Shown here: piece by piece, positions 13,412 to 42,418 of the stretch | How the letters are laid out: every line of letters starts with the position of its first letter | Numbering within the stretch: position 1 is the stretch's first letter | Sequence record: MT682706.1 | DNA: 43,757 bases | Source of the DNA: Escherichia phage vB_EcoS_FP | Strand: one strand, 5' to 3' | Notes under the pieces: generated by a model | Seen by the model: the letters and a program-made list of their open reading frames with translations, nothing else | Databases searched by the model: none | Told to the model about the DNA's origin: nothing | Position numbers and translations under genes: made by a program

Positions 13412-14068
13412 ATGGCTCATTTATCAAATGGCACGCAGGTCTTCGTAGAAGGATCTCGCGGAACTCCAATTGACGTAACTGCAATCTCTAACGCAGATAA
13501 ACCAGTTTTAACCGTATCTAGCGCATCTGGCCTGGCTAAGGGTGACTACCTTCTGTTTACCGCCTCCAGCTCAACCCTACTTAGCGACAAACATGTGCGA
13601 GTAACTGAAGTTTCTGGCACTTCGGTAACAGTTGAAGGTATTGATACCTCCAATACCACTAAGTTCCCTGCTGGCTTAACTGGTGAGGTTGTTAAGATTG
13701 ACTCATGGTTCGAAGTCCCGTGTGTTCAGGACGTATCTACTGACGGCGGCGAACAGCAGTTTGTTAACTTCCAGTGTCTTTCTGATGACCGCGAGCAGCA
13801 GATTCCGACTTATAAGTCTGCGGTAACAAACACCTTCACCTTTGCTCACGAGTACACCAACCCGGTCTATCCGGTTCTGCGTAAGTACGATGAGTCTGGC
13901 CAGGTTGTTGCAATTCGTCTGTTCGTACCTCGCGCTCAGGAAATGCGTTTGCAGTCCGGCACTATCGCTTTCAACGACACCCCTACCATTGGTGTTAACG
14001 AAATCGAAACGGTATCCATCGCTGTATCCATTCGTGGTCGTCTGTCCTCTGTGGCAGCTGAAGTTTAA
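13412..14068 (+). CDS. major tail protein
   Basis: 218 aa; strong RBS; followed by terminator; position upstream of chaperones and tape measure. Confidence 0.7.
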   Translation: MAHLSNGTQVFVEGSRGTPIDVTAISNADKPVLTVSSASGLAKGDYLLFTASSSTLLSDKHVRVTEVSGTSVTVEGIDTSNTTKFPAGLTGEVVKIDSWFEVPCVQDVSTDGGEQQFVNFQCLSDDREQQIPTYKSAVTNTFTFAHEYTNPVYPVLRKYDESGQVVAIRLFVPRAQEMRLQSGTIAFNDTPTIGVNEIETVSIAVSIRGRLSSVAAEV

Positions 14069-14073
14069 AACAC

Positions 14074-14098
14074 AAACCCTCTTCGGAGGGTTTTTTAT
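14074..14098 (+). terminator. intrinsic terminator
   Basis: AACCCTCTTCGGAGGGTTTTTTATT. Confidence 0.75.
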
Positions 14099-14178: not shown

Positions 14179-14427
14179 ATGAATAACGTTAAAAACATCA
14201 TCAAGCTTGCTGCGGTTCTGGTCGCTTTTTATGCAGCAGTTCAGATTGTCAACCCAACTGGCGAGGTTGATGCAAATAGCAAGGCAAACAAATATACTGT
14301 TGAGTTTGCTAAAGCTGAGCGAGCATGTCAGAATCTTGTGGGTAGCAAGGTTGACCAAATCATGAAATATGGAAAAGAGGTTTGTAAGGACTCAGCCGCT
14401 AAGATTGCAAAAGAAAACACTAAGTAA
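14179..14427 (+). CDS. small secreted/membrane-anchored protein (82 aa), moron-like insert in tail module
   Basis: N-terminal hydrophobic segment IIKLAAVLVAFYAAVQIV; own promoter module and upstream terminator. Confidence 0.55.
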   Translation: MNNVKNIIKLAAVLVAFYAAVQIVNPTGEVDANSKANKYTVEFAKAERACQNLVGSKVDQIMKYGKEVCKDSAAKIAKENTK

Positions 14428-14465
14428 TAGAATACATACTCACAAACAATAAGAGGATTAACAAA

Positions 14466-14780
14466 ATGGCAAAGTTCAAACTTTCACTGGCAGCACTCCC
14501 TGACTTTAAGTTGCCTGTAAAATTCAAGCTGGCTAACGACCAGGATGTAGAGGTTATCTTTACAGTTAAGCACAAGAAAACATCTGAGTTGCAGGAATTG
14601 CTTAGCAGGGAGGATTTAAGCACAAAAGAACTTATTATGGCAATTGCCTCTGATTGGGATTTGGAGGAGGAATACAACGAAGATAACGTTAATGAGTTCT
14701 CCGACCTGTTCCCAGCCTCAACCGTTGCACTTACTACCGCTTATATGCAGGCACTGGCAGGCCAGCGGGCAAAAAACTAA
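14466..14780 (+). CDS. tail assembly chaperone (G-like)
   Basis: Position upstream of tape measure; ends in slippery A_AAA_AAC. Confidence 0.7.
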   Translation: MAKFKLSLAALPDFKLPVKFKLANDQDVEVIFTVKHKKTSELQELLSREDLSTKELIMAIASDWDLEEEYNEDNVNEFSDLFPASTVALTTAYMQALAGQRAKN

Positions 14781-15100
14781 AGAGGGCGGTGTATCTACAG
14801 TACCAGTCAGAGCCAACTGATGCCGAACTGGAAGCTATTGGGATGCGCCGCTCTGATTACGAAGACGAAGAGCCTGAAGTTTTACACTTCGACGACAACA
14901 TGATGAAGGCTTGGGACATTTATTGTTCAATGGCCACGCAATGGAGGGTTGGAGCTAACGGAGCTACAGGGTTAGATTACAACGTGCTAAATTTCCTCTT
15001 TAGAGTGTATAATGTCTCAGAAGAAGAATTGGTGCTCAGTGATTTACGCATCCTTGAAGCTAAGGCTCTCGAGATGATGGATAATCTGAGAAAAAAATAA
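14466..15100 (+). CDS. tail assembly chaperone GT-like fusion via programmed -1 frameshift at A_AAA_AAC (14771-14777)
   Basis: Slippery heptamer in frame with the G codons; -1 frame continues as ...KKLKRAVYLQYQSEPTD into ORF ending 15100. Confidence 0.55.
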
Positions 15101-15120
15101 CCCGCTTCGGCGGGTTTTCT
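15100..15120 (+). terminator. intrinsic terminator-like hairpin
   Basis: ACCCGCTTCGGCGGGTTTT. Confidence 0.45.
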
Positions 15121-15135
15121 ATTATGGAGGCTTAG

Positions 15136-18114
15136 ATGGCAACAAATGAATTAGCCGGAATCACACTAGCCGTAGACGTCTCGCAGGTAGACAGGGGAAC
15201 GCAATCCCTACAAAAGTTCAGGCAGGCAAACCAGCAGGCTGCTTCCGGTATTAGTGAGTTCGTCAACGCTGAACAGGTCGCTAAAAACCAGGCTAGAGAT
15301 ACCGCTCGCGCACTGGCTGAACAGCAAGCATCTTTAGCTAAATTGCAAACAGCTATTGATCCAACTGCGGCAAAGTTCCGAAAGCTGCAAGAGGCTGCTG
15401 TAGGTCTTGACAAGGCTTTCGCGGCTGGAGTAGTTCCTGATGAGGAGTTTTTCCGCTTAGGTGAAGCCCTTGAAACGCAGAGCGCAAAACTTGCTCGTTC
15501 ACGTGCGGCGCTAACTGAAGAGGGAAGGGCGGCAGCTCAAGCCGCAAAGGATAAGGCAAAGGCAAAGGCTGAAGCTGATAGGTTCATTGCGTCACTTGAG
15601 CGACAGGCTCAAGCGGCAACATTGACGCGTGAGGAGTACTTAAAATTACAGGCTGCCCAGCTTGGGGTGAGCTCTCAGGCAGCACCTATTATTGACAGAA
15701 TCGCCGATGCATCACAGAAGGCAAACACCCAGCTAATTGCTCAGAGTAAGGCTTTTCAGAAATCAGGATTAAGCGCAGGTCAATACAAGAACGCAATTTC
15801 TCAGCTGCCAGCGCAGATTACTGATATTGGCACGTCTCTTGCTGGCGGCATTCCGATTTGGCTTATTGCAATTCAGCAGGGTGGGCAGATCAAGGATGCA
15901 TTTGGCGGTATTGGTAACACCTTTAGATTCGCGCTTGCTGCTTTAAACCCATTCAACGTAGCAGTTGGGGTTCTCGGTGGCGCTCTTATTGCTTTAGGTG
16001 TCGGTGCAGCTCAGGCTGAAAGTGAATTCAGAGCATTAAACTCTGCCATTGCATTCTCCAACAACTCCACAATCGCATCAATCTCGCAGGTTAGAGATTT
16101 GGTTAGCTCCGTTTCTGATGCTACTGGTGCAACCAGAGGACTTGTGACTAGCATCGCAACAAGCCTTATTGAGCAAGGGAACCTTACGCTGACGCAGATT
16201 GACAAGATTACCAAATCAACCGCCAGATGGGCGCAGTTGACAGGTAAGGATGCGAAGGAGATTACTGGTTACTATAACCAGATTGCGAGCGACCCAATTC
16301 AAGGACTTGCTGATTTAGACAAGAGGTTTAACTTCCTTACACAGGGGCAGTTAACAACAATTGAAAGATTGAGAGAGACTAGGGGTGAGGTTGAAGCTGT
16401 TACCGCCGCGATTGATATTTTCAGCAAGTCACAGGAAGCTAACCTTAACGACATAGCTGCGCAGTTAACCCCACTTGAGTTGGCCTGGAATGATTTTAGA
16501 AAGTACATCTCTGATATCTGGGATGCAATTAGTCGTAGAACGGTTGGGGCGCTGAACTTGTTTGTTGACGTAATAGCAGGAACAATTGAGCAAATCAGGG
16601 TCTTCCTTAACAGCGGTGACGTGCTGATTGGTGAATTCGTAATTAGCTCAATTCAGGCGTTGCAGAACATACCTGGTCTTGATGGTGTCGGTGATGACGT
16701 TATCAAGGCTCAGCGTGAGATTATCGATGCAGCTAAGAAGAATAACCTTGAACTAGAAAAGTCTATCAGGGAGCGAGACGCTAGAATAAGAAAAGGAGAA
16801 ATGGGTTACGTTACTAGCAGAGAAAATCAGAATACCAATGAGCAGCCAGGCACGGATGAGGAGTTTGCAAAGAGGAAGAAGGCGCTTCAGGATGAGCTTG
16901 ACGCGATTAAGAAGAACAGGAAAGAGGAAAATGGGAGGGTTAAGGAGCAAAGGGATTTAACAATAGGTTATGAATCTGGCGTTCTGGCACTTCAGGCTCA
17001 ACTCAAAGTTCTTCAGGAAAACAGGGATATTGGCGCAGTAATAAGCAACGAGCGCAAGCAGTACCTTCAGGAGGAAGCAAATTTCAGGATTCTTGAGCAG
17101 AGGCAAATTGATGGATCAATAACCAAAGAGCAGGGCAGGCTTCTTATTGAGAAAGATAAGGTTCTTCAACTGGCCAGACAGAAGGCCGAATTGGGTGACC
17201 AGATTGTTTTGCAGGAACGAGCCAATAAGTTGGCTGAAGTTAACCGCAAAAAGATTCTTCAGATTAACAATGAAGCGAGTAACATTGACTTGGGTGCTGG
17301 GTTATCATCTCGTGAGCAGCAAAGAGCTAAGGAGATTCAGGCTCTTAAGTCCAATCAGGTCAATGCTGGTGGCTCTCTTGATGATGTTGATTTTCAGCGG
17401 TTGCTGGAAGCAAGAAAGGAATACTACAAGCAGGAGGATAATCTTAGGTCAGACTGGCAATCAGGTGTAACATCCACTCTCGCCGACTTGACAGAGAAAT
17501 ATACAGACTACAATCAGATAGCTAAGGATTTAACCGTTGCGGCATTCGACGGGATCACAGAGCAAATCACCAACCTTGTAACCACTGGTGAGACCAATTT
17601 TAGGGAGTTCACATCAAACATCCTCAAAATGATTGCGAAGATTGCAACTCAGTTACTTTTGGTTAAGGCCATCGAATCAACATTGACTAGCTTTGGTGGT
17701 GGTGGAGGTAATGCGTTTGGCTCTTTTGCGTCTGCTATAGGTTTCTCCGGTGGCGGTTACACTGGTGACGGCGGTAAGTACCAGCCAGCAGGCACTGTGC
17801 ACCGTGGTGAGTTTGTATTCACAAAAGAAGCTACAAGCCGAATCGGTGTGAAAAACCTTTACGCGCTAATGAAGGGGTATGCAAACGGCGGCGCTGTAGG
17901 TGGTCCATCTGGTTATGCAAATGGCGGCTTGGTTTCTGGTGGTGCGGATGTTAATGTTAGCGGCATCACCGTTAACGTGAGCTCTGGTGTTGGTAGCGAC
18001 CCAGAGCAAGCTAAGGCGCTGCAAAGCGGAGTCAAGGCTATCGTAGCGGAAGAGATTGCGCAGTCTTTCCAGCAGGGCGGCAGGGCGTATCAGTACCTGC
18101 GCGGATTCAACTAA
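15136..18114 (+). CDS. tail tape measure protein
   Basis: 992 aa; coiled-coil-rich N-terminal half; Gly-rich C-terminal region; position. Confidence 0.9.
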   Translation: MATNELAGITLAVDVSQVDRGTQSLQKFRQANQQAASGISEFVNAEQVAKNQARDTARALAEQQASLAKLQTAIDPTAAKFRKLQEAAVGLDKAFAAGVVPDEEFFRLGEALETQSAKLARSRAALTEEGRAAAQAAKDKAKAKAEADRFIASLERQAQAATLTREEYLKLQAAQLGVSSQAAPIIDRIADASQKANTQLIAQSKAFQKSGLSAGQYKNAISQLPAQITDIGTSLAGGIPIWLIAIQQGGQIKDAFGGIGNTFRFALAALNPFNVAVGVLGGALIALGVGAAQAESEFRALNSAIAFSNNSTIASISQVRDLVSSVSDATGATRGLVTSIATSLIEQGNLTLTQIDKITKSTARWAQLTGKDAKEITGYYNQIASDPIQGLADLDKRFNFLTQGQLTTIERLRETRGEVEAVTAAIDIFSKSQEANLNDIAAQLTPLELAWNDFRKYISDIWDAISRRTVGALNLFVDVIAGTIEQIRVFLNSGDVLIGEFVISSIQALQNIPGLDGVGDDVIKAQREIIDAAKKNNLELEKSIRERDARIRKGEMGYVTSRENQNTNEQPGTDEEFAKRKKALQDELDAIKKNRKEENGRVKEQRDLTIGYESGVLALQAQLKVLQENRDIGAVISNERKQYLQEEANFRILEQRQIDGSITKEQGRLLIEKDKVLQLARQKAELGDQIVLQERANKLAEVNRKKILQINNEASNIDLGAGLSSREQQRAKEIQALKSNQVNAGGSLDDVDFQRLLEARKEYYKQEDNLRSDWQSGVTSTLADLTEKYTDYNQIAKDLTVAAFDGITEQITNLVTTGETNFREFTSNILKMIAKIATQLLLVKAIESTLTSFGGGGGNAFGSFASAIGFSGGGYTGDGGKYQPAGTVHRGEFVFTKEATSRIGVKNLYALMKGYANGGAVGGPSGYANGGLVSGGADVNVSGITVNVSSGVGSDPEQAKALQSGVKAIVAEEIAQSFQQGGRAYQYLRGFN

Positions 18115-39630: not shown

Positions 39631-40116
39631 ATGAAGCAGAAGCTGCTAATTAGCGCGGCTACGGCTGCGGCAATATACATCGCAGCGCCGCTTATTGAGC
39701 TCGTTGAGGGTGTGGAGAACAAGCCTTACATGGACATTGCTGGAATCCCTACAGTTTGTTCAGGTATTACTGGACCTGACGTTGTTTGGGGTAAAACTTA
39801 CAGTAACAGGGAGTGCCGGAACCTACTGGAGAAGCACATCCAGATTCATGCTAAGTATGTTCAGGATGCGGTTACCTACCCAATTGCACGGCAGACAAGG
39901 GCAGCGCTAATCAGCTTTAGCTACAACGTTGGTGGTCATGCCATGAAGAACTCAACGGCAATTAGACTTATCAATCAGGGTAAAGTGGAGCAGGGTTGTA
40001 AGGCTCTTGGGATGTGGAATAAAGCTACCGTTAACGGCAAAAAGGTTATTGTTAAGGGTTTGGTTAATCGCAGGAACGAGGAGGTTAAGCTATGCTTAAG
40101 TGGATTGCAGCGTTAG
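39631..40116 (+). CDS. SAR endolysin (lysozyme, P21 R-like)
   Basis: N-terminal SAR-like hydrophobic segment; blocks KPYMDIAGIPTVCSGIT and SFSYNVGGHA recalled to resemble phage P21 R lysozyme. Confidence 0.85.
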   Translation: MKQKLLISAATAAAIYIAAPLIELVEGVENKPYMDIAGIPTVCSGITGPDVVWGKTYSNRECRNLLEKHIQIHAKYVQDAVTYPIARQTRAALISFSYNVGGHAMKNSTAIRLINQGKVEQGCKALGMWNKATVNGKKVIVKGLVNRRNEEVKLCLSGLQR

Positions 40117-40481
40117 TAATGTGCGTGGCCTTATCTGGATGCTCAGCAACATCTGCGCTGACTGGTTTGATTGGCAGCAATCCAGAAATTAGCGCACAGG
40201 CTGGAGCAGAAAACAACAAGGTTGGTGTTGGGTTAACTAACAAGGTTGACTCCAGTAACTCCAGCGATGCTTCCTTTAAGGATTCTAGCGTAGGCTCTCT
40301 GGATAGCTCGAGCGGAAAAAAGACTGCTGACAATTCGATTAAGGCCTCAACAATCACTGCCGAAAAGATTGAAATTACCAATAACGAATCATCATCGCTT
40401 CCGTGGGTTGGAACAGGAGCTATGGGTCTACTGGTTTTGATTCTCCTGACCGTAATCTTAAGACGTAAAAAAGCCTCCTAA
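40092..40481 (+). CDS. unimolecular spanin (T1 gp11-like)
   Basis: Lipobox LSGC at N-terminus plus C-terminal transmembrane segment LLVLILLTVIL; overlaps endolysin end. Confidence 0.6.
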   Translation: MLKWIAALVMCVALSGCSATSALTGLIGSNPEISAQAGAENNKVGVGLTNKVDSSNSSDASFKDSSVGSLDSSSGKKTADNSIKASTITAEKIEITNNESSSLPWVGTGAMGLLVLILLTVILRRKKAS

Positions 40482-40834: not shown

Positions 40835-42418
40835 TCACCCCAATAGTCGTGGATTAATGTAAACTTTATCACCAATCAGGCACGTATAGTTTTTCTCATC
40901 AAGCATTGGCAGCAAGTGATCTTTAATCTTAGTCATTACTCCAGCTTGAGCCTCGAACGGCTTAACCTTGCGAGCCGCTTCATATAGCGAACGAATACCT
41001 ACTACTCCTTTCCCGCTCTTGCCTTGCTTAATCAGGATATCAATCAGCTTATTCATCTCGGCATTGTCGCCAGCGTGACCGGCGGCGTTAGCAGATGACA
41101 AATAAGTCTTACTCAGTTCCTGGAACATAATTACAGCCTCTTGCATGGTGTCGAGCTCGATTTCTCTGGACTTCTGTGGACTCCCACCGCTAGGGTTGAA
41201 CCAGTTACGCACAGTGTGAAGAACCGCCGCAATCCTGATTGCCTGCTTATCGAACTTACCCAGCGCGCCGCGCAACATGGTGTGGGAATACTTACCGCCG
41301 TCCGCAAGGTGAGGTTCCATCTCCTGACGAGCGCGGTTGAGATATTTCATTGCTGAATTGCTAACCGTTAGTTTTACATCCTGCTCATTCATGATTTCAT
41401 GAACAAGACGGAAGTAGTCAGCCTTCAACCCGCCATCAATTGGTTCATAAGTAGATTCGCCATTTTCATCAACAAATACACGCTCGCCCAGGAGTGACTT
41501 TTCACGTACAAGCAGGAAACGCTCAGATACACCGATACCACGAGCGCCAGCGTTCATGATAGCGTTGATTGTCTCATCCTGTGCAATTACAGAGATGCAA
41601 CCCATAGCAACAAAGCTCATATTGTTTTCTCCGTTCGCACGCGCAATGGACACGTTGCCAGCATCCCATGCCTTCAGTACAAGCTCGCTGTTCGTTTTCT
41701 TTGAGCCGTCACCATAGGTCATGCCTAATAGTGAGTTGACGCTAGTTGCCTCATCAGAGATTACAGCAAAGTTGCCCTGGCGGTTGTTGATTCGGGCCAG
41801 ACCTTCTGGTGTGGTATCGGATACAGGGAAAACGATATCACAGAGCTTTTCCAGCTTTTCCTCAAGATCCTCTTTCTCCTCAAAAAGTGAGGCCATCTCT
41901 GATGGTGACTTTTCCTGCTTCATCTCTTTGGATAATGCAGATAGTTTTGCCATGATCTTCTTGCGCTCACGCTTTCTCACTTCATTCAGCCGCTCAGTCT
42001 CAGCAATCATTGGAGCAATTGAAAGTGAGTTGATTGCTGATTTACCAGTCGATGGTGGCTGGCTTGTTACAACATAAAGCGAAGTCGGTTGCTGAGTTCC
42101 GTGATACTCAACGGTAAAGCGGCCTAGCATCGCAGCGGAAATACACCCCAGGAAGTGCATGTACGCGGACGACTCCGGGAACTGAACTGAGCGAGCAATG
42201 TTAGCTGACAGCTTACCAACAACATCAACATCATTGCCGAGTGAGATTGCGGGATACTTGTCATTTGCAGCATCAATCTCGACTGGTGCTTTCCAGAATG
42301 ATTGAGATTGGCGATAGCCATTTGCATTGATGGCTACTCGCAGTGGCGGGAGGTTGTCTGCGGCAGCAATTGCCATAACCTGTTCAACAGATAGTTTATC
42401 TTCGTTGAAGTCAAACAT
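40835..42418 (-). CDS. P-loop NTPase (possible SF3 helicase / replication initiator)
   Basis: About 527 aa from ATG 42418 (RBS GGAGAG); Walker A TSQPPSTGKS, Walker B FAVISDEATS; N- and C-terminal domains paralogous to 1162-1707. Confidence 0.7.
   Translation of the reverse strand: MFDFNEDKLSVEQVMAIAAADNLPPLRVAINANGYRQSQSFWKAPVEIDAANDKYPAISLGNDVDVVGKLSANIARSVQFPESSAYMHFLGCISAAMLGRFTVEYHGTQQPTSLYVVTSQPPSTGKSAINSLSIAPMIAETERLNEVRKRERKKIMAKLSALSKEMKQEKSPSEMASLFEEKEDLEEKLEKLCDIVFPVSDTTPEGLARINNRQGNFAVISDEATSVNSLLGMTYGDGSKKTNSELVLKAWDAGNVSIARANGENNMSFVAMGCISVIAQDETINAIMNAGARGIGVSERFLLVREKSLLGERVFVDENGESTYEPIDGGLKADYFRLVHEIMNEQDVKLTVSNSAMKYLNRARQEMEPHLADGGKYSHTMLRGALGKFDKQAIRIAAVLHTVRNWFNPSGGSPQKSREIELDTMQEAVIMFQELSKTYLSSANAAGHAGDNAEMNKLIDILIKQGKSGKGVVGIRSLYEAARKVKPFEAQAGVMTKIKDHLLPMLDEKNYTCLIGDKVYINPRLLG

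Follow-up and report, generated by a model that had tools for sequence, protein, structure and literature searches.

Frameshifting in Tail Assembly Chaperone Genes

Tail assembly chaperone genes of the G/GT type are reportedly recognized, in the scheme attributed to Xu, Hendrix and Duda in 2004, by the position of the two ORFs, their overlap in the -1 frame, a slippery sequence in phase with the upstream ORF, and conservation. For phage λ, the mechanism has been described together with a G:GT ratio of 30:1 and the binding of T to the tube protein (reviewed in PMC5009743, which cites Levin, Hendrix and Casjens 1993 and Xu, Hendrix and Duda 2004, 2013 and 2014). The locus considered here resembles that of λ in having an overlapping pair of ORFs, similar in size to those of λ, between the genes for the major tail protein and the tape measure protein. 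There are, however, several differences. The λ slip site is G_GGA_AAG, whereas the one found here is A_AAA_AAC and lies right at the stop codon; the protein families are Phage_TAC_4 and DUF1799, other than those of λ G and T; the heptamer is followed, after 5 nt, by a large predicted hairpin; and a terminator-like hairpin parts T from the tape measure gene.

Closer comparisons come from the T1-like phages. The T1 pair itself (gp40/gp39) is homologous to the genes treated here, a "conserved translational frameshift" has been noted in the T1-like Citrobacter phage Stevie (PMC4319613), and a frameshift has been reported for E. coli phage U136B (PMC8104045). In Escherichia phage OzMSK (PQ659294), which has about 92% nucleotide identity to the present sequence, the heptamer, stop, spacer and hairpin are identical, leaving essentially no difference between the two sites, and a joined CDS at the same position carries the note "frameshifted product of tail assembly chaperone". 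Joined CDSs are also present in the records of Klebsiella phage Sushi (NC_028774) and Serratia phage Smarc4, both of which, unlike the present phage, lack the canonical heptamer. The joined spans are 635 nt in OzMSK, 641 nt in Sushi and 683 nt in Smarc4; with 1 nt added, each becomes a multiple of 3, as fits a -1 shift. A search of the literature for protein, ribosome-profiling, reporter or genetic data on the fusion found none for any member of the Drexlerviridae.

The same heptamer has been noted in more distant phages. In Acinetobacter phage Loki (gp12/gp13), AAAAAAC adjoins the stop of the chaperone gene (PMC5313236), and for the haloarchaeal virus HCTV-2 the g-t shift site is given as A_AAA_AAC (PMC5009743). 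As in the present case, A_AAA_AAC serves in both as the chaperone frameshift motif, and the sites there are also predicted ones, but the hosts and the protein sequences are unrelated. Within the host, the relevant comparison is with the E. coli dnaX gene, whose gamma/tau signal consists of the heptamer A_AAA_AAG, an upstream SD-like element and a downstream hairpin. The phage site would be read by the same translation machinery, and it likewise combines an A-rich heptamer read by tRNA-Lys with a predicted stem-loop a few nucleotides downstream. Unlike dnaX, however, its seventh base is C rather than G, and consequently the A-site tRNA is that for Asn. Furthermore, it shows no conserved upstream SD-like element and, with its different heptamer, lacks the tripartite signal of the dnaX type, and its shifted frame encodes a long extension, whereas the dnaX shift leads to early termination.

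The Locus in Phage vB_EcoS_FP

The window, by which we mean the whole stretch of DNA that was analysed, is the 43,757-nt sequence of Escherichia phage vB_EcoS_FP (MT682706.1), read as one strand from 5' to 3'. Over the region of interest it has 92-94% nucleotide identity to Escherichia phages BEK6, IME542, IME253, DTL, EC3a and OzMSK. Because these coliphages include EC3a, which is classified as Drexlerviridae, Braunvirinae, Guelphvirus, the phage is placed on its sequence as a T1-like coliphage of the Drexlerviridae, subfamily Braunvirinae, of the Rtp/Guelphvirus type.

The gene order on the + strand is Phage_tail_3, Phage_TAC_4, DUF1799, TMP_2, which places G and T after the major tail gene and ahead of the tape measure gene. 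The upstream neighbour (13412..14068, +) encodes the major tail (tube) protein (Pfam Phage_tail_3, E 7.5e-68), and its counterparts in relatives are annotated as major tail protein or T1 gp41-like. An additional ORF of 82 aa (14179-14427) lies between this gene and G. The G-like tail assembly chaperone ORF (14466..14780, +), which defines the zero frame, encodes 104 aa and matches Phage_TAC_4 (PF08748) with E 8e-33 and 113.7 bits, above the gathering threshold of 21.1; it also matches phrog_569, and its OzMSK counterpart is annotated as T1 gp40-like. The T segment in the -1 frame (14777..15100, +) comprises 107 codons plus the TAA at 15098-15100 and matches DUF1799 (PF08809) with E 5.5e-16 and 59.0 bits, again above the gathering threshold (26), as well as phrog_680. 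The tape measure gene follows (15136..18114, +; Pfam TMP_2, E 3.3e-49; Tape_meas_lam_C, E 7.2e-16). Both the synteny and the domains thus match the conserved G/GT arrangement directly upstream of the tape measure gene that had been proposed in the first-pass annotation.

Between T and the tape measure gene there is a terminator-like GC hairpin followed by a T-run (15099..15116, +), and a terminator is annotated at the same spot in EC3a and Sushi. A fusion of T to the tape measure protein through an in-phase A_AAA_AAA at 15091-97 was considered and rejected, as the -1 frame at that point stops at the TAG at 15133-35.

The Slip Site and Its Conservation

The 3' end of the G ORF reads ...CAG CGG GCA AAA AAC TAA, with GCA at 14769-71, AAA at 14772-74, AAC at 14775-77 and TAA at 14778-80. 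Direct reading of these letters confirms the canonical heptamer A_AAA_AAC at 14771..14777 (+), in X_XXY_YYZ phase with ORF 14466-14780. It had been described as lying two codons before the stop; the heptamer does cover the last two sense codons, but the second of these touches the TAA directly. The stop itself lies within a 5-nt spacer, UAAAG (14778..14782, +).

The T frame stands in the -1 relation to G (G starts at 0 mod 3, and the T frame is 2 mod 3). Its last upstream stop is at 14693-95; from 14696 onward it stays open until the TAA at 15098-15100, in agreement with the earlier statement that it runs without a stop into the ORF ending at 15100. The two frames therefore overlap for 85 nt (14696..14780, +), a stretch without -1 frame stops, in which a shift at any point would fuse G to T. 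In the window, this overlap contains one in-phase X_XXY_YYZ, that at 14771, and no other slip site; a TTTCCCA is present in the overlap of one relative (L008) and is not conserved. A -1 shift at the heptamer would lead to the reading CTA AAG AGG GCG GTG TAT... and to a fusion of 211 aa with the sequence ...GQRAKN-LKRAVYLQYQ... across the junction. Inspection by eye of GGYCAGCGNGYA revealed no upstream SD-like stimulator of the dnaX type, and the third positions in that segment vary.

How often such a site might arise by chance was estimated in two ways. In-frame X_XXY_YYZ heptamers number 35 per 10418 codons in the + strand ORFs of the window, which for an overlap of 28 codons gives an expectation of about 0.09, against the 1 present. 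In addition, given the peptide Ala-Lys-Asn, the codons GCA AAA AAC would be used about 8% of the time by the window's codon usage. By themselves, these figures would constitute modest evidence, and the weight is carried by conservation among related sequences.

To assess this conservation, 26 related loci (some of them redundant) were collected by tblastn, peptide patterns and record look-ups, giving a set of 27 sequences with the window. Identity of the G protein across the set ranges from 28% to 98%, and G homologues were found in 993 phage records. Of the 27 sequences, 17 have AAAAAAC followed by TAA at the corresponding position; the codon preceding AAA in these 17 is GCA, GTA or GAA (Ala, Val or Glu), always with A as its third base, which the heptamer demands. 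All Braunvirinae but one record end the G homologue in this way, as do the Tempevirinae BlueShadow and tunus, the Tunavirinae SRT8 and JMPW1, and the Dhillonvirus "bob", whose G protein is just 28.7% identical. Furthermore, the stop abuts the heptamer in every relative that carries it. A pattern scan of IMG/VR yielded further loci with AAAAAAC and TAA, along with unrelated chaperone pairs that have the same "...KN*" ending and in which both frames are open for at least about 100 codons.

The canonical heptamer is absent, however, from the Rogunavirinae (GCA_AAG_GTC_TAA), Webervirus (GCA_AAA_GTY_TAA) and Serratia phage Smarc4 (GAA_AAG_TCC_TAA), all of which still have, 1-2 codons ahead of the stop, a codon for Lys in an A_AAR context. 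Since the Rogunavirinae retain the G/T arrangement with neither the canonical heptamer nor a stable hairpin, these elements are not strictly required in the family.

Evidence for Translation of the -1 Frame

The peptide encoded in the -1 frame begins L(K/R)RAVYL, from the first post-slip codon, in all Drexlerviridae lineages examined, while the more distant bob and Smarc4 have different starts (LIEAARRF and LSAAIDSY). The codons for L(K/R)RAVYL vary synonymously: AGG, CGG or CGC for Arg, GCG or GCA for Ala, GTG, GTT or GTA for Val, and CTA or CTG for Leu. Such synonymous change in the codons of the post-slip peptide is, on this comparison, a mark of purifying selection on a translated sequence.

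The only candidate for an independent start of T is the GTG at 14789..14791 (+), codon 5 of the -1 segment, which is preceded by the SD-like sequence AGAGGG at 14781-86. A start-capable GTG at codon 5 is confined to the Braunvirinae; the Tempevirinae, Tunavirinae, Rogunavirinae and Webervirus have GTT or GTA there. Within the Braunvirinae, the SD-like bases are themselves variable, being ACGAGC in EC3a and Rtp. The first ATG, GTG or TTG of the T frame is found at codon 42 in tunus and JMPW1, at codon 51 in Webervirus and at codon 68 in bob. Over the first 40-70 codons, most relatives outside the Braunvirinae thus offer no start. In records that do not join the two ORFs, the T starts are truncated and inconsistent from record to record.

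Evidence for a single product also comes from phrog_17368, a fused-chaperone profile of 213 positions. The G ORF matches its positions 1-107 and the T segment its positions 109-210, and the junction of the two matches falls exactly at the slip site. Residues 1-207 of the conceptual fusion match positions 1-210 in a single stretch (E 9.2e-81).

Taken together, the reading frames, the conservation, the fusion profile and the joined annotations support the programmed -1 frameshift between the two chaperone ORFs that had been postulated at the outset. Gene position, -1 overlap, a slip site in phase and conservation in relatives are all present at the locus, with the caveat of the Braunvirinae GTG at codon 5. 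By comparative sequence analysis, it is strongly supported that the site is the G/GT recoding signal of a T1-like coliphage, and a GT fusion is very probably made by a -1 shift at A_AAA_AAC (14771-14777).

A Predicted Hairpin Downstream of the Slip Site

RNA structure prediction 3' of the heptamer had been suggested as a check on the frameshift, and it gives a stable hairpin that starts 5 nt downstream. This predicted stimulatory structure (14783..14854, +) is 72 nt long. Its lower stem pairs 14783-14796 with 14841-14854, and its upper stems pair 14798-14807 with 14827-14840, with a bulge at 14832-35. A spacer of 5 nt between the heptamer and the modelled hairpin would fit the canonical -1 PRF cassette, in which the spacer is 5-9 nt.

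When 14778-14870 is folded, the result is a long irregular hairpin with an MFE of -35.1 kcal/mol (z -4.4), and none of 200 dinucleotide shuffles is as stable. With synonymous codons randomized and the T peptide held fixed, the mean is -19.7 kcal/mol (sd 3.9), and 1 in 1000 such sequences is as stable as the native one. In these models, then, the stability of the hairpin is greater than the coding sequence explains. Among 4368 overlapping 80-nt segments of the + strand, the hairpin ranks third, and the better folds are solely overlapping segments of one region at about 17931-17981. The structure depends on a distant pairing partner: short-range folding of the 48-63 nt downstream of the heptamer gives no significant structure (z +0.2 to +0.9), and the hairpin emerges only when the distal arm, 14827-14854, is included. 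A scan of 14400-15200 against Rfam with E up to 1 yielded no family at 14700-14900, and the only matches were sub-threshold ones at the terminator (15049-15167).

Comparison within the Braunvirinae shows the predicted hairpin to be kept in 9/9 sequences, with z from -2.9 to -5.6. The stem columns of these nine are invariant, and variation is limited to the apical region and the base of the stem, where the changes are one-sided only (G-U to A-U at 14785 and A-U to C/U at 14783). Third positions in paired bases vary less often (3/19) than third positions in the rest of G-T (97/192; p 0.004), but against the T region alone the difference is not significant (3/18 vs 30/80; p 0.11). Lowered synonymous variation in the stems would thus provide suggestive, weak support for the hairpin. 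In the model, both the GTG at 14789-91 and the SD-like AGAGGG are buried in the lower stem.

Outside the Braunvirinae, the predicted structures are of other kinds. Where the window has the 72-nt hairpin, the Tempevirinae and Tunavirinae have a different, compact one, GGGCGGUU..UCUG-N6-CAGAAACCGCCC, predicted to start 6-7 nt past the heptamer. GC-rich hairpins that start 4-7 nt downstream are predicted in bob and in unrelated chaperone genes ending in AAAAAAC-TAA. The pattern used for the IMG/VR scan fixed GCGGT in the 5' arm, and the census of hairpins is biased on that arm; loci that were retrieved independently, by tblastn and peptide patterns, give the same picture. In the Rogunavirinae, there is no stable downstream structure (z about +0.8).

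Other Explanations for the Two Reading Frames

It could be supposed that T is simply a separate protein, made either by initiation of its own at GTG 14789, using AGAGGG, or by reinitiation 9 nt downstream after termination at TAA 14778-80. Such a reading would draw on the SD-like sequence ahead of the GTG, on a distance between stop and GTG that is short enough for coupling, on a remark in the OzMSK record ("also has independent RBS"), and on the many records in which two distinct CDSs are annotated. However, the GTG has become a Val codon that is no start (GTT or GTA) in the Tempevirinae, Tunavirinae, Rogunavirinae and Webervirus, and although the peptide is conserved from codon 1 onward, several of these relatives have no possible start before codons 42-68. 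Moreover, LKRA, the four codons ahead of the GTG, is conserved through synonymous changes and therefore must be translated. In addition, the SD-like bases vary within the Braunvirinae, the GTG sits inside a stem predicted at -35 kcal/mol, and the differing T starts among records suggest that there is no real start to annotate. Independent synthesis of T in place of the fusion is consequently quite improbable; to judge by the sequences compared, starts at the GTG may supply a certain amount of unfused T in the Braunvirinae, but they cannot be the conserved route. Still harder to credit, and next to impossible in our estimate, is the idea that the T ORF is open by chance, or is a gene in decay, beside a coincidental heptamer. 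The expectation of about 0.09 for one in-phase heptamer in a 28-codon overlap is admittedly not negligible, but the T segment is a bona fide DUF1799/phrog_680 domain, conserved in many phage records, and the heptamer is conserved across subfamilies.

If T is reached from G, the change of frame might nevertheless occur in transcription, through slippage of RNA polymerase on the A6 run at 14771-76 such that some transcripts lose one A (or gain two). Efficient slippage by bacterial RNA polymerase generally requires runs of about 8-9 or more A/T, and a run of only six falls short of this. The homopolymer is there, and such fusions are known to arise through transcriptional slippage as well (PMC5009743), but runs of at least six A are common, with 17 on the + strand of the window. 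What is conserved, furthermore, is a phased heptamer with C at position 7, followed by a stop and, at 5-7 nt, by a hairpin, which is a ribosomal signature, and the Rogunavirinae and Webervirus keep the G/T arrangement on A3-A4, which is unable to support slippage. A contribution of this kind is very improbable. A ribosomal shift that involves a single tRNA is less easily dismissed, although we consider it unlikely. In this case, it would be either the P-site tRNA-Lys that slips on A_AAA, with the A site unoccupied, or the P-site tRNA-Asn that slips at a slowly decoded TAA. The relatives that lack the heptamer preserve just the Lys codon in an A_AAR context (GCA_AAG_GTC_TAA, GCA_AAA_GTY_TAA and GAA_AAG_TCC_TAA), the stop abuts the heptamer wherever a heptamer is found, and A_AAG is shift-prone by itself in E. 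coli (PMC5009743). However, the full heptamer, including the preceding third-position A and the AAC, is conserved far past what a single-tRNA slip needs. The junction peptide would distinguish some of these events, being AKN-LKR after a tandem slip or a slip at the stop, and AKK-LKR if the P-site Lys tRNA slips before Asn is decoded.

A Model for the Synthesis of GT

In the favored model, a tandem -1 slip on the heptamer, most ribosomes that translate 14466-14780 would terminate at the TAA at 14778-80 and release the 104-aa G protein, while a minority would slip back by one base on A_AAA_AAC. The tRNA-Lys would move from AAA at 14772-74 to 14771-73 and the tRNA-Asn from AAC at 14775-77 to AAA at 14774-76. 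The slipped ribosomes would then read CUA AAG AGG GCG GUG... and produce the 211-aa fusion with the DUF1799 (T) domain. As modelled, the hairpin at 14783-14854 would probably cause the ribosome to pause over the heptamer and raise the frequency of slippage, and the adjacent stop may also aid the slip. By hiding the GTG, the predicted hairpin would probably also ensure that T is made only as part of the fusion.

Because A_AAA_AAC is reported to be far less prone to shifting in E. coli than A_AAA_AAG (PMC5009743), the efficiency of the shift is expected to be low. By analogy with λ, which needs only about 3%, a low efficiency would be enough, and GT is expected to be the minor product and G the major one. 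Also by this analogy, the tape measure protein would be covered by many copies of G and a few of GT, polymerization of the tube would start through recruitment of the tail tube protein by the T domain, and the finished virion would contain neither G nor GT.

These considerations have led to a further proposal about the hairpin itself, which we put forward tentatively, as somewhat less than an even prospect. The 72-nt structure may be a stimulator specific to the Braunvirinae that took the place of the compact hairpin of the T1 type, its 3' arm having been displaced by about 45 nt downstream into the codons for Gly-Met-Arg-Arg-Ser. It would sequester the lineage-specific GTG and SD-like sequence such that T is made only as a fusion, while the Rogunavirinae would shift on a bare A_AAG with neither heptamer nor hairpin.

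Implications for the T1-Like Phages

A G/GT frameshift at this position is a textbook feature, already known and annotated at the homologous site of the 92%-identical phage OzMSK. What is mildly new is the lineage-specific 72-nt hairpin, as predicted, together with the apparent turnover of the cis-signal within the Drexlerviridae, where the modelled forms are a compact hairpin, a long hairpin, or neither heptamer nor hairpin. GenBank records of this phage group mostly give the pair as two separate CDSs that are "hypothetical" or mislabelled "tape measure"; a corrected annotation would consist of a 104-aa G and a 211-aa GT, with the join at 14777/14777.

Since the G:GT ratio controls tail assembly in λ, the site would, by analogy, be relevant to the engineering or refactoring of T1-like phages, and tail assembly would probably fail if codon optimization recoded either the heptamer or the hairpin. 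In addition, the clade-specific hairpins and the heptamer-less sites of the Rogunavirinae and Webervirus offer a small natural series, albeit an incremental one, on the minimal bacterial -1 signal. If the proposal of a Braunvirinae-specific hairpin is true, the cis-signal of a conserved recoding event would turn over fast within one phage family.

Relatives with a different sequence at the slip site

In one Braunvirinae relative, Escherichia phage 2725-N35 (locus L003; MN840485), the slip site at 2172-2181 contains a run of five A residues rather than six, and consequently the ORF of the tail assembly chaperone G is extended to 117 aa and T, the downstream segment of the chaperone, lies in the +1 frame. 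The shortened run reflects either an error in sequencing the homopolymer or natural variation, and in the latter case a different shift would be needed. Elsewhere, an X_XXY_YYZ heptamer is absent at the G stop, as seen in the loci of the Rogunavirinae (L013-L018), Webervirus (L023-L024), and Smarc4 (L026), where the sequence reads GCA_AAG_GTC_TAA, GCA_AAA_GTY_TAA, and GAA_AAG_TCC_TAA, respectively. All of these loci retain the overlap of G and T and the L(K/R)RAVYL junction, and in the Rogunavirinae no hairpin is predicted downstream of the G stop. A slip by a single tRNA-Lys would be needed in these three groups.

The list of matches to this coliphage region also contains about 20 records labeled "Campylobacter phage" and one labeled "Pseudomonas phage," with identities of 92-94%; MG065688 (Campylobacter phage A110b) and PP134917 (Pseudomonas phage PsgS01F) are examples. 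These host labels look doubtful.

Other heptamers and stable folds in the window

In-phase A_AAA_AAG heptamers are found at 5779-5785, within the ORF at 5390-5902, and at 40316-40322, within the ORF at 40092-40481. An overlapping ORF (5787-7466) begins 8 nt after the first of these; however, because it lies in the +1 rather than the -1 frame, a fusion of the G/GT type between it and ORF 5390-5902 is not expected. Folds about as stable as the predicted frameshift hairpin (14783-14854) occur elsewhere on the plus strand in only two places, approximately 17931-17981 and 42271-42311, where 80-nt windows have predicted stabilities of -31 to -35 kcal/mol. The former falls within the tape measure gene, in its Gly-rich 3' portion.

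Sequences flanking the chaperone genes

A plus-strand ORF of 82 aa (14179-14427), which separates the major tail gene from the chaperone gene, has a hydrophobic N-terminus and matches phrog_22925 (category: unknown function; E = 3e-53). A terminator-like hairpin (14074-14093) is present on one side of it and a promoter-like site (14405-14433) on the other. The locus comparison places this ORF in Braunvirinae relatives; in Rogunavirinae, Tempevirinae, Tunavirinae, and Webervirus loci, the interval between the two genes is only about 75-110 nt. The ORF looks like a moron-type insert.

At the other end, a second in-phase slippery-type heptamer, A_AAA_AAA (15091-15097), lies directly 5' of the T stop. 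A -1 shift here would enter the tape measure frame; however, a fusion of T to the tape measure protein is impossible, since the shifted frame meets a TAG at 15133-15135, immediately 5' of the ATG at 15136. Just beyond this heptamer, the T stop codon is overlapped by a GC-rich hairpin with a T-run (15099-15116) that resembles a terminator on either strand; the tape measure ATG lies 20 nt further on. A terminator is annotated at the equivalent position in the EC3a and Sushi records. The ratio of chaperone to tape measure protein could be tuned by a terminator between the two genes.
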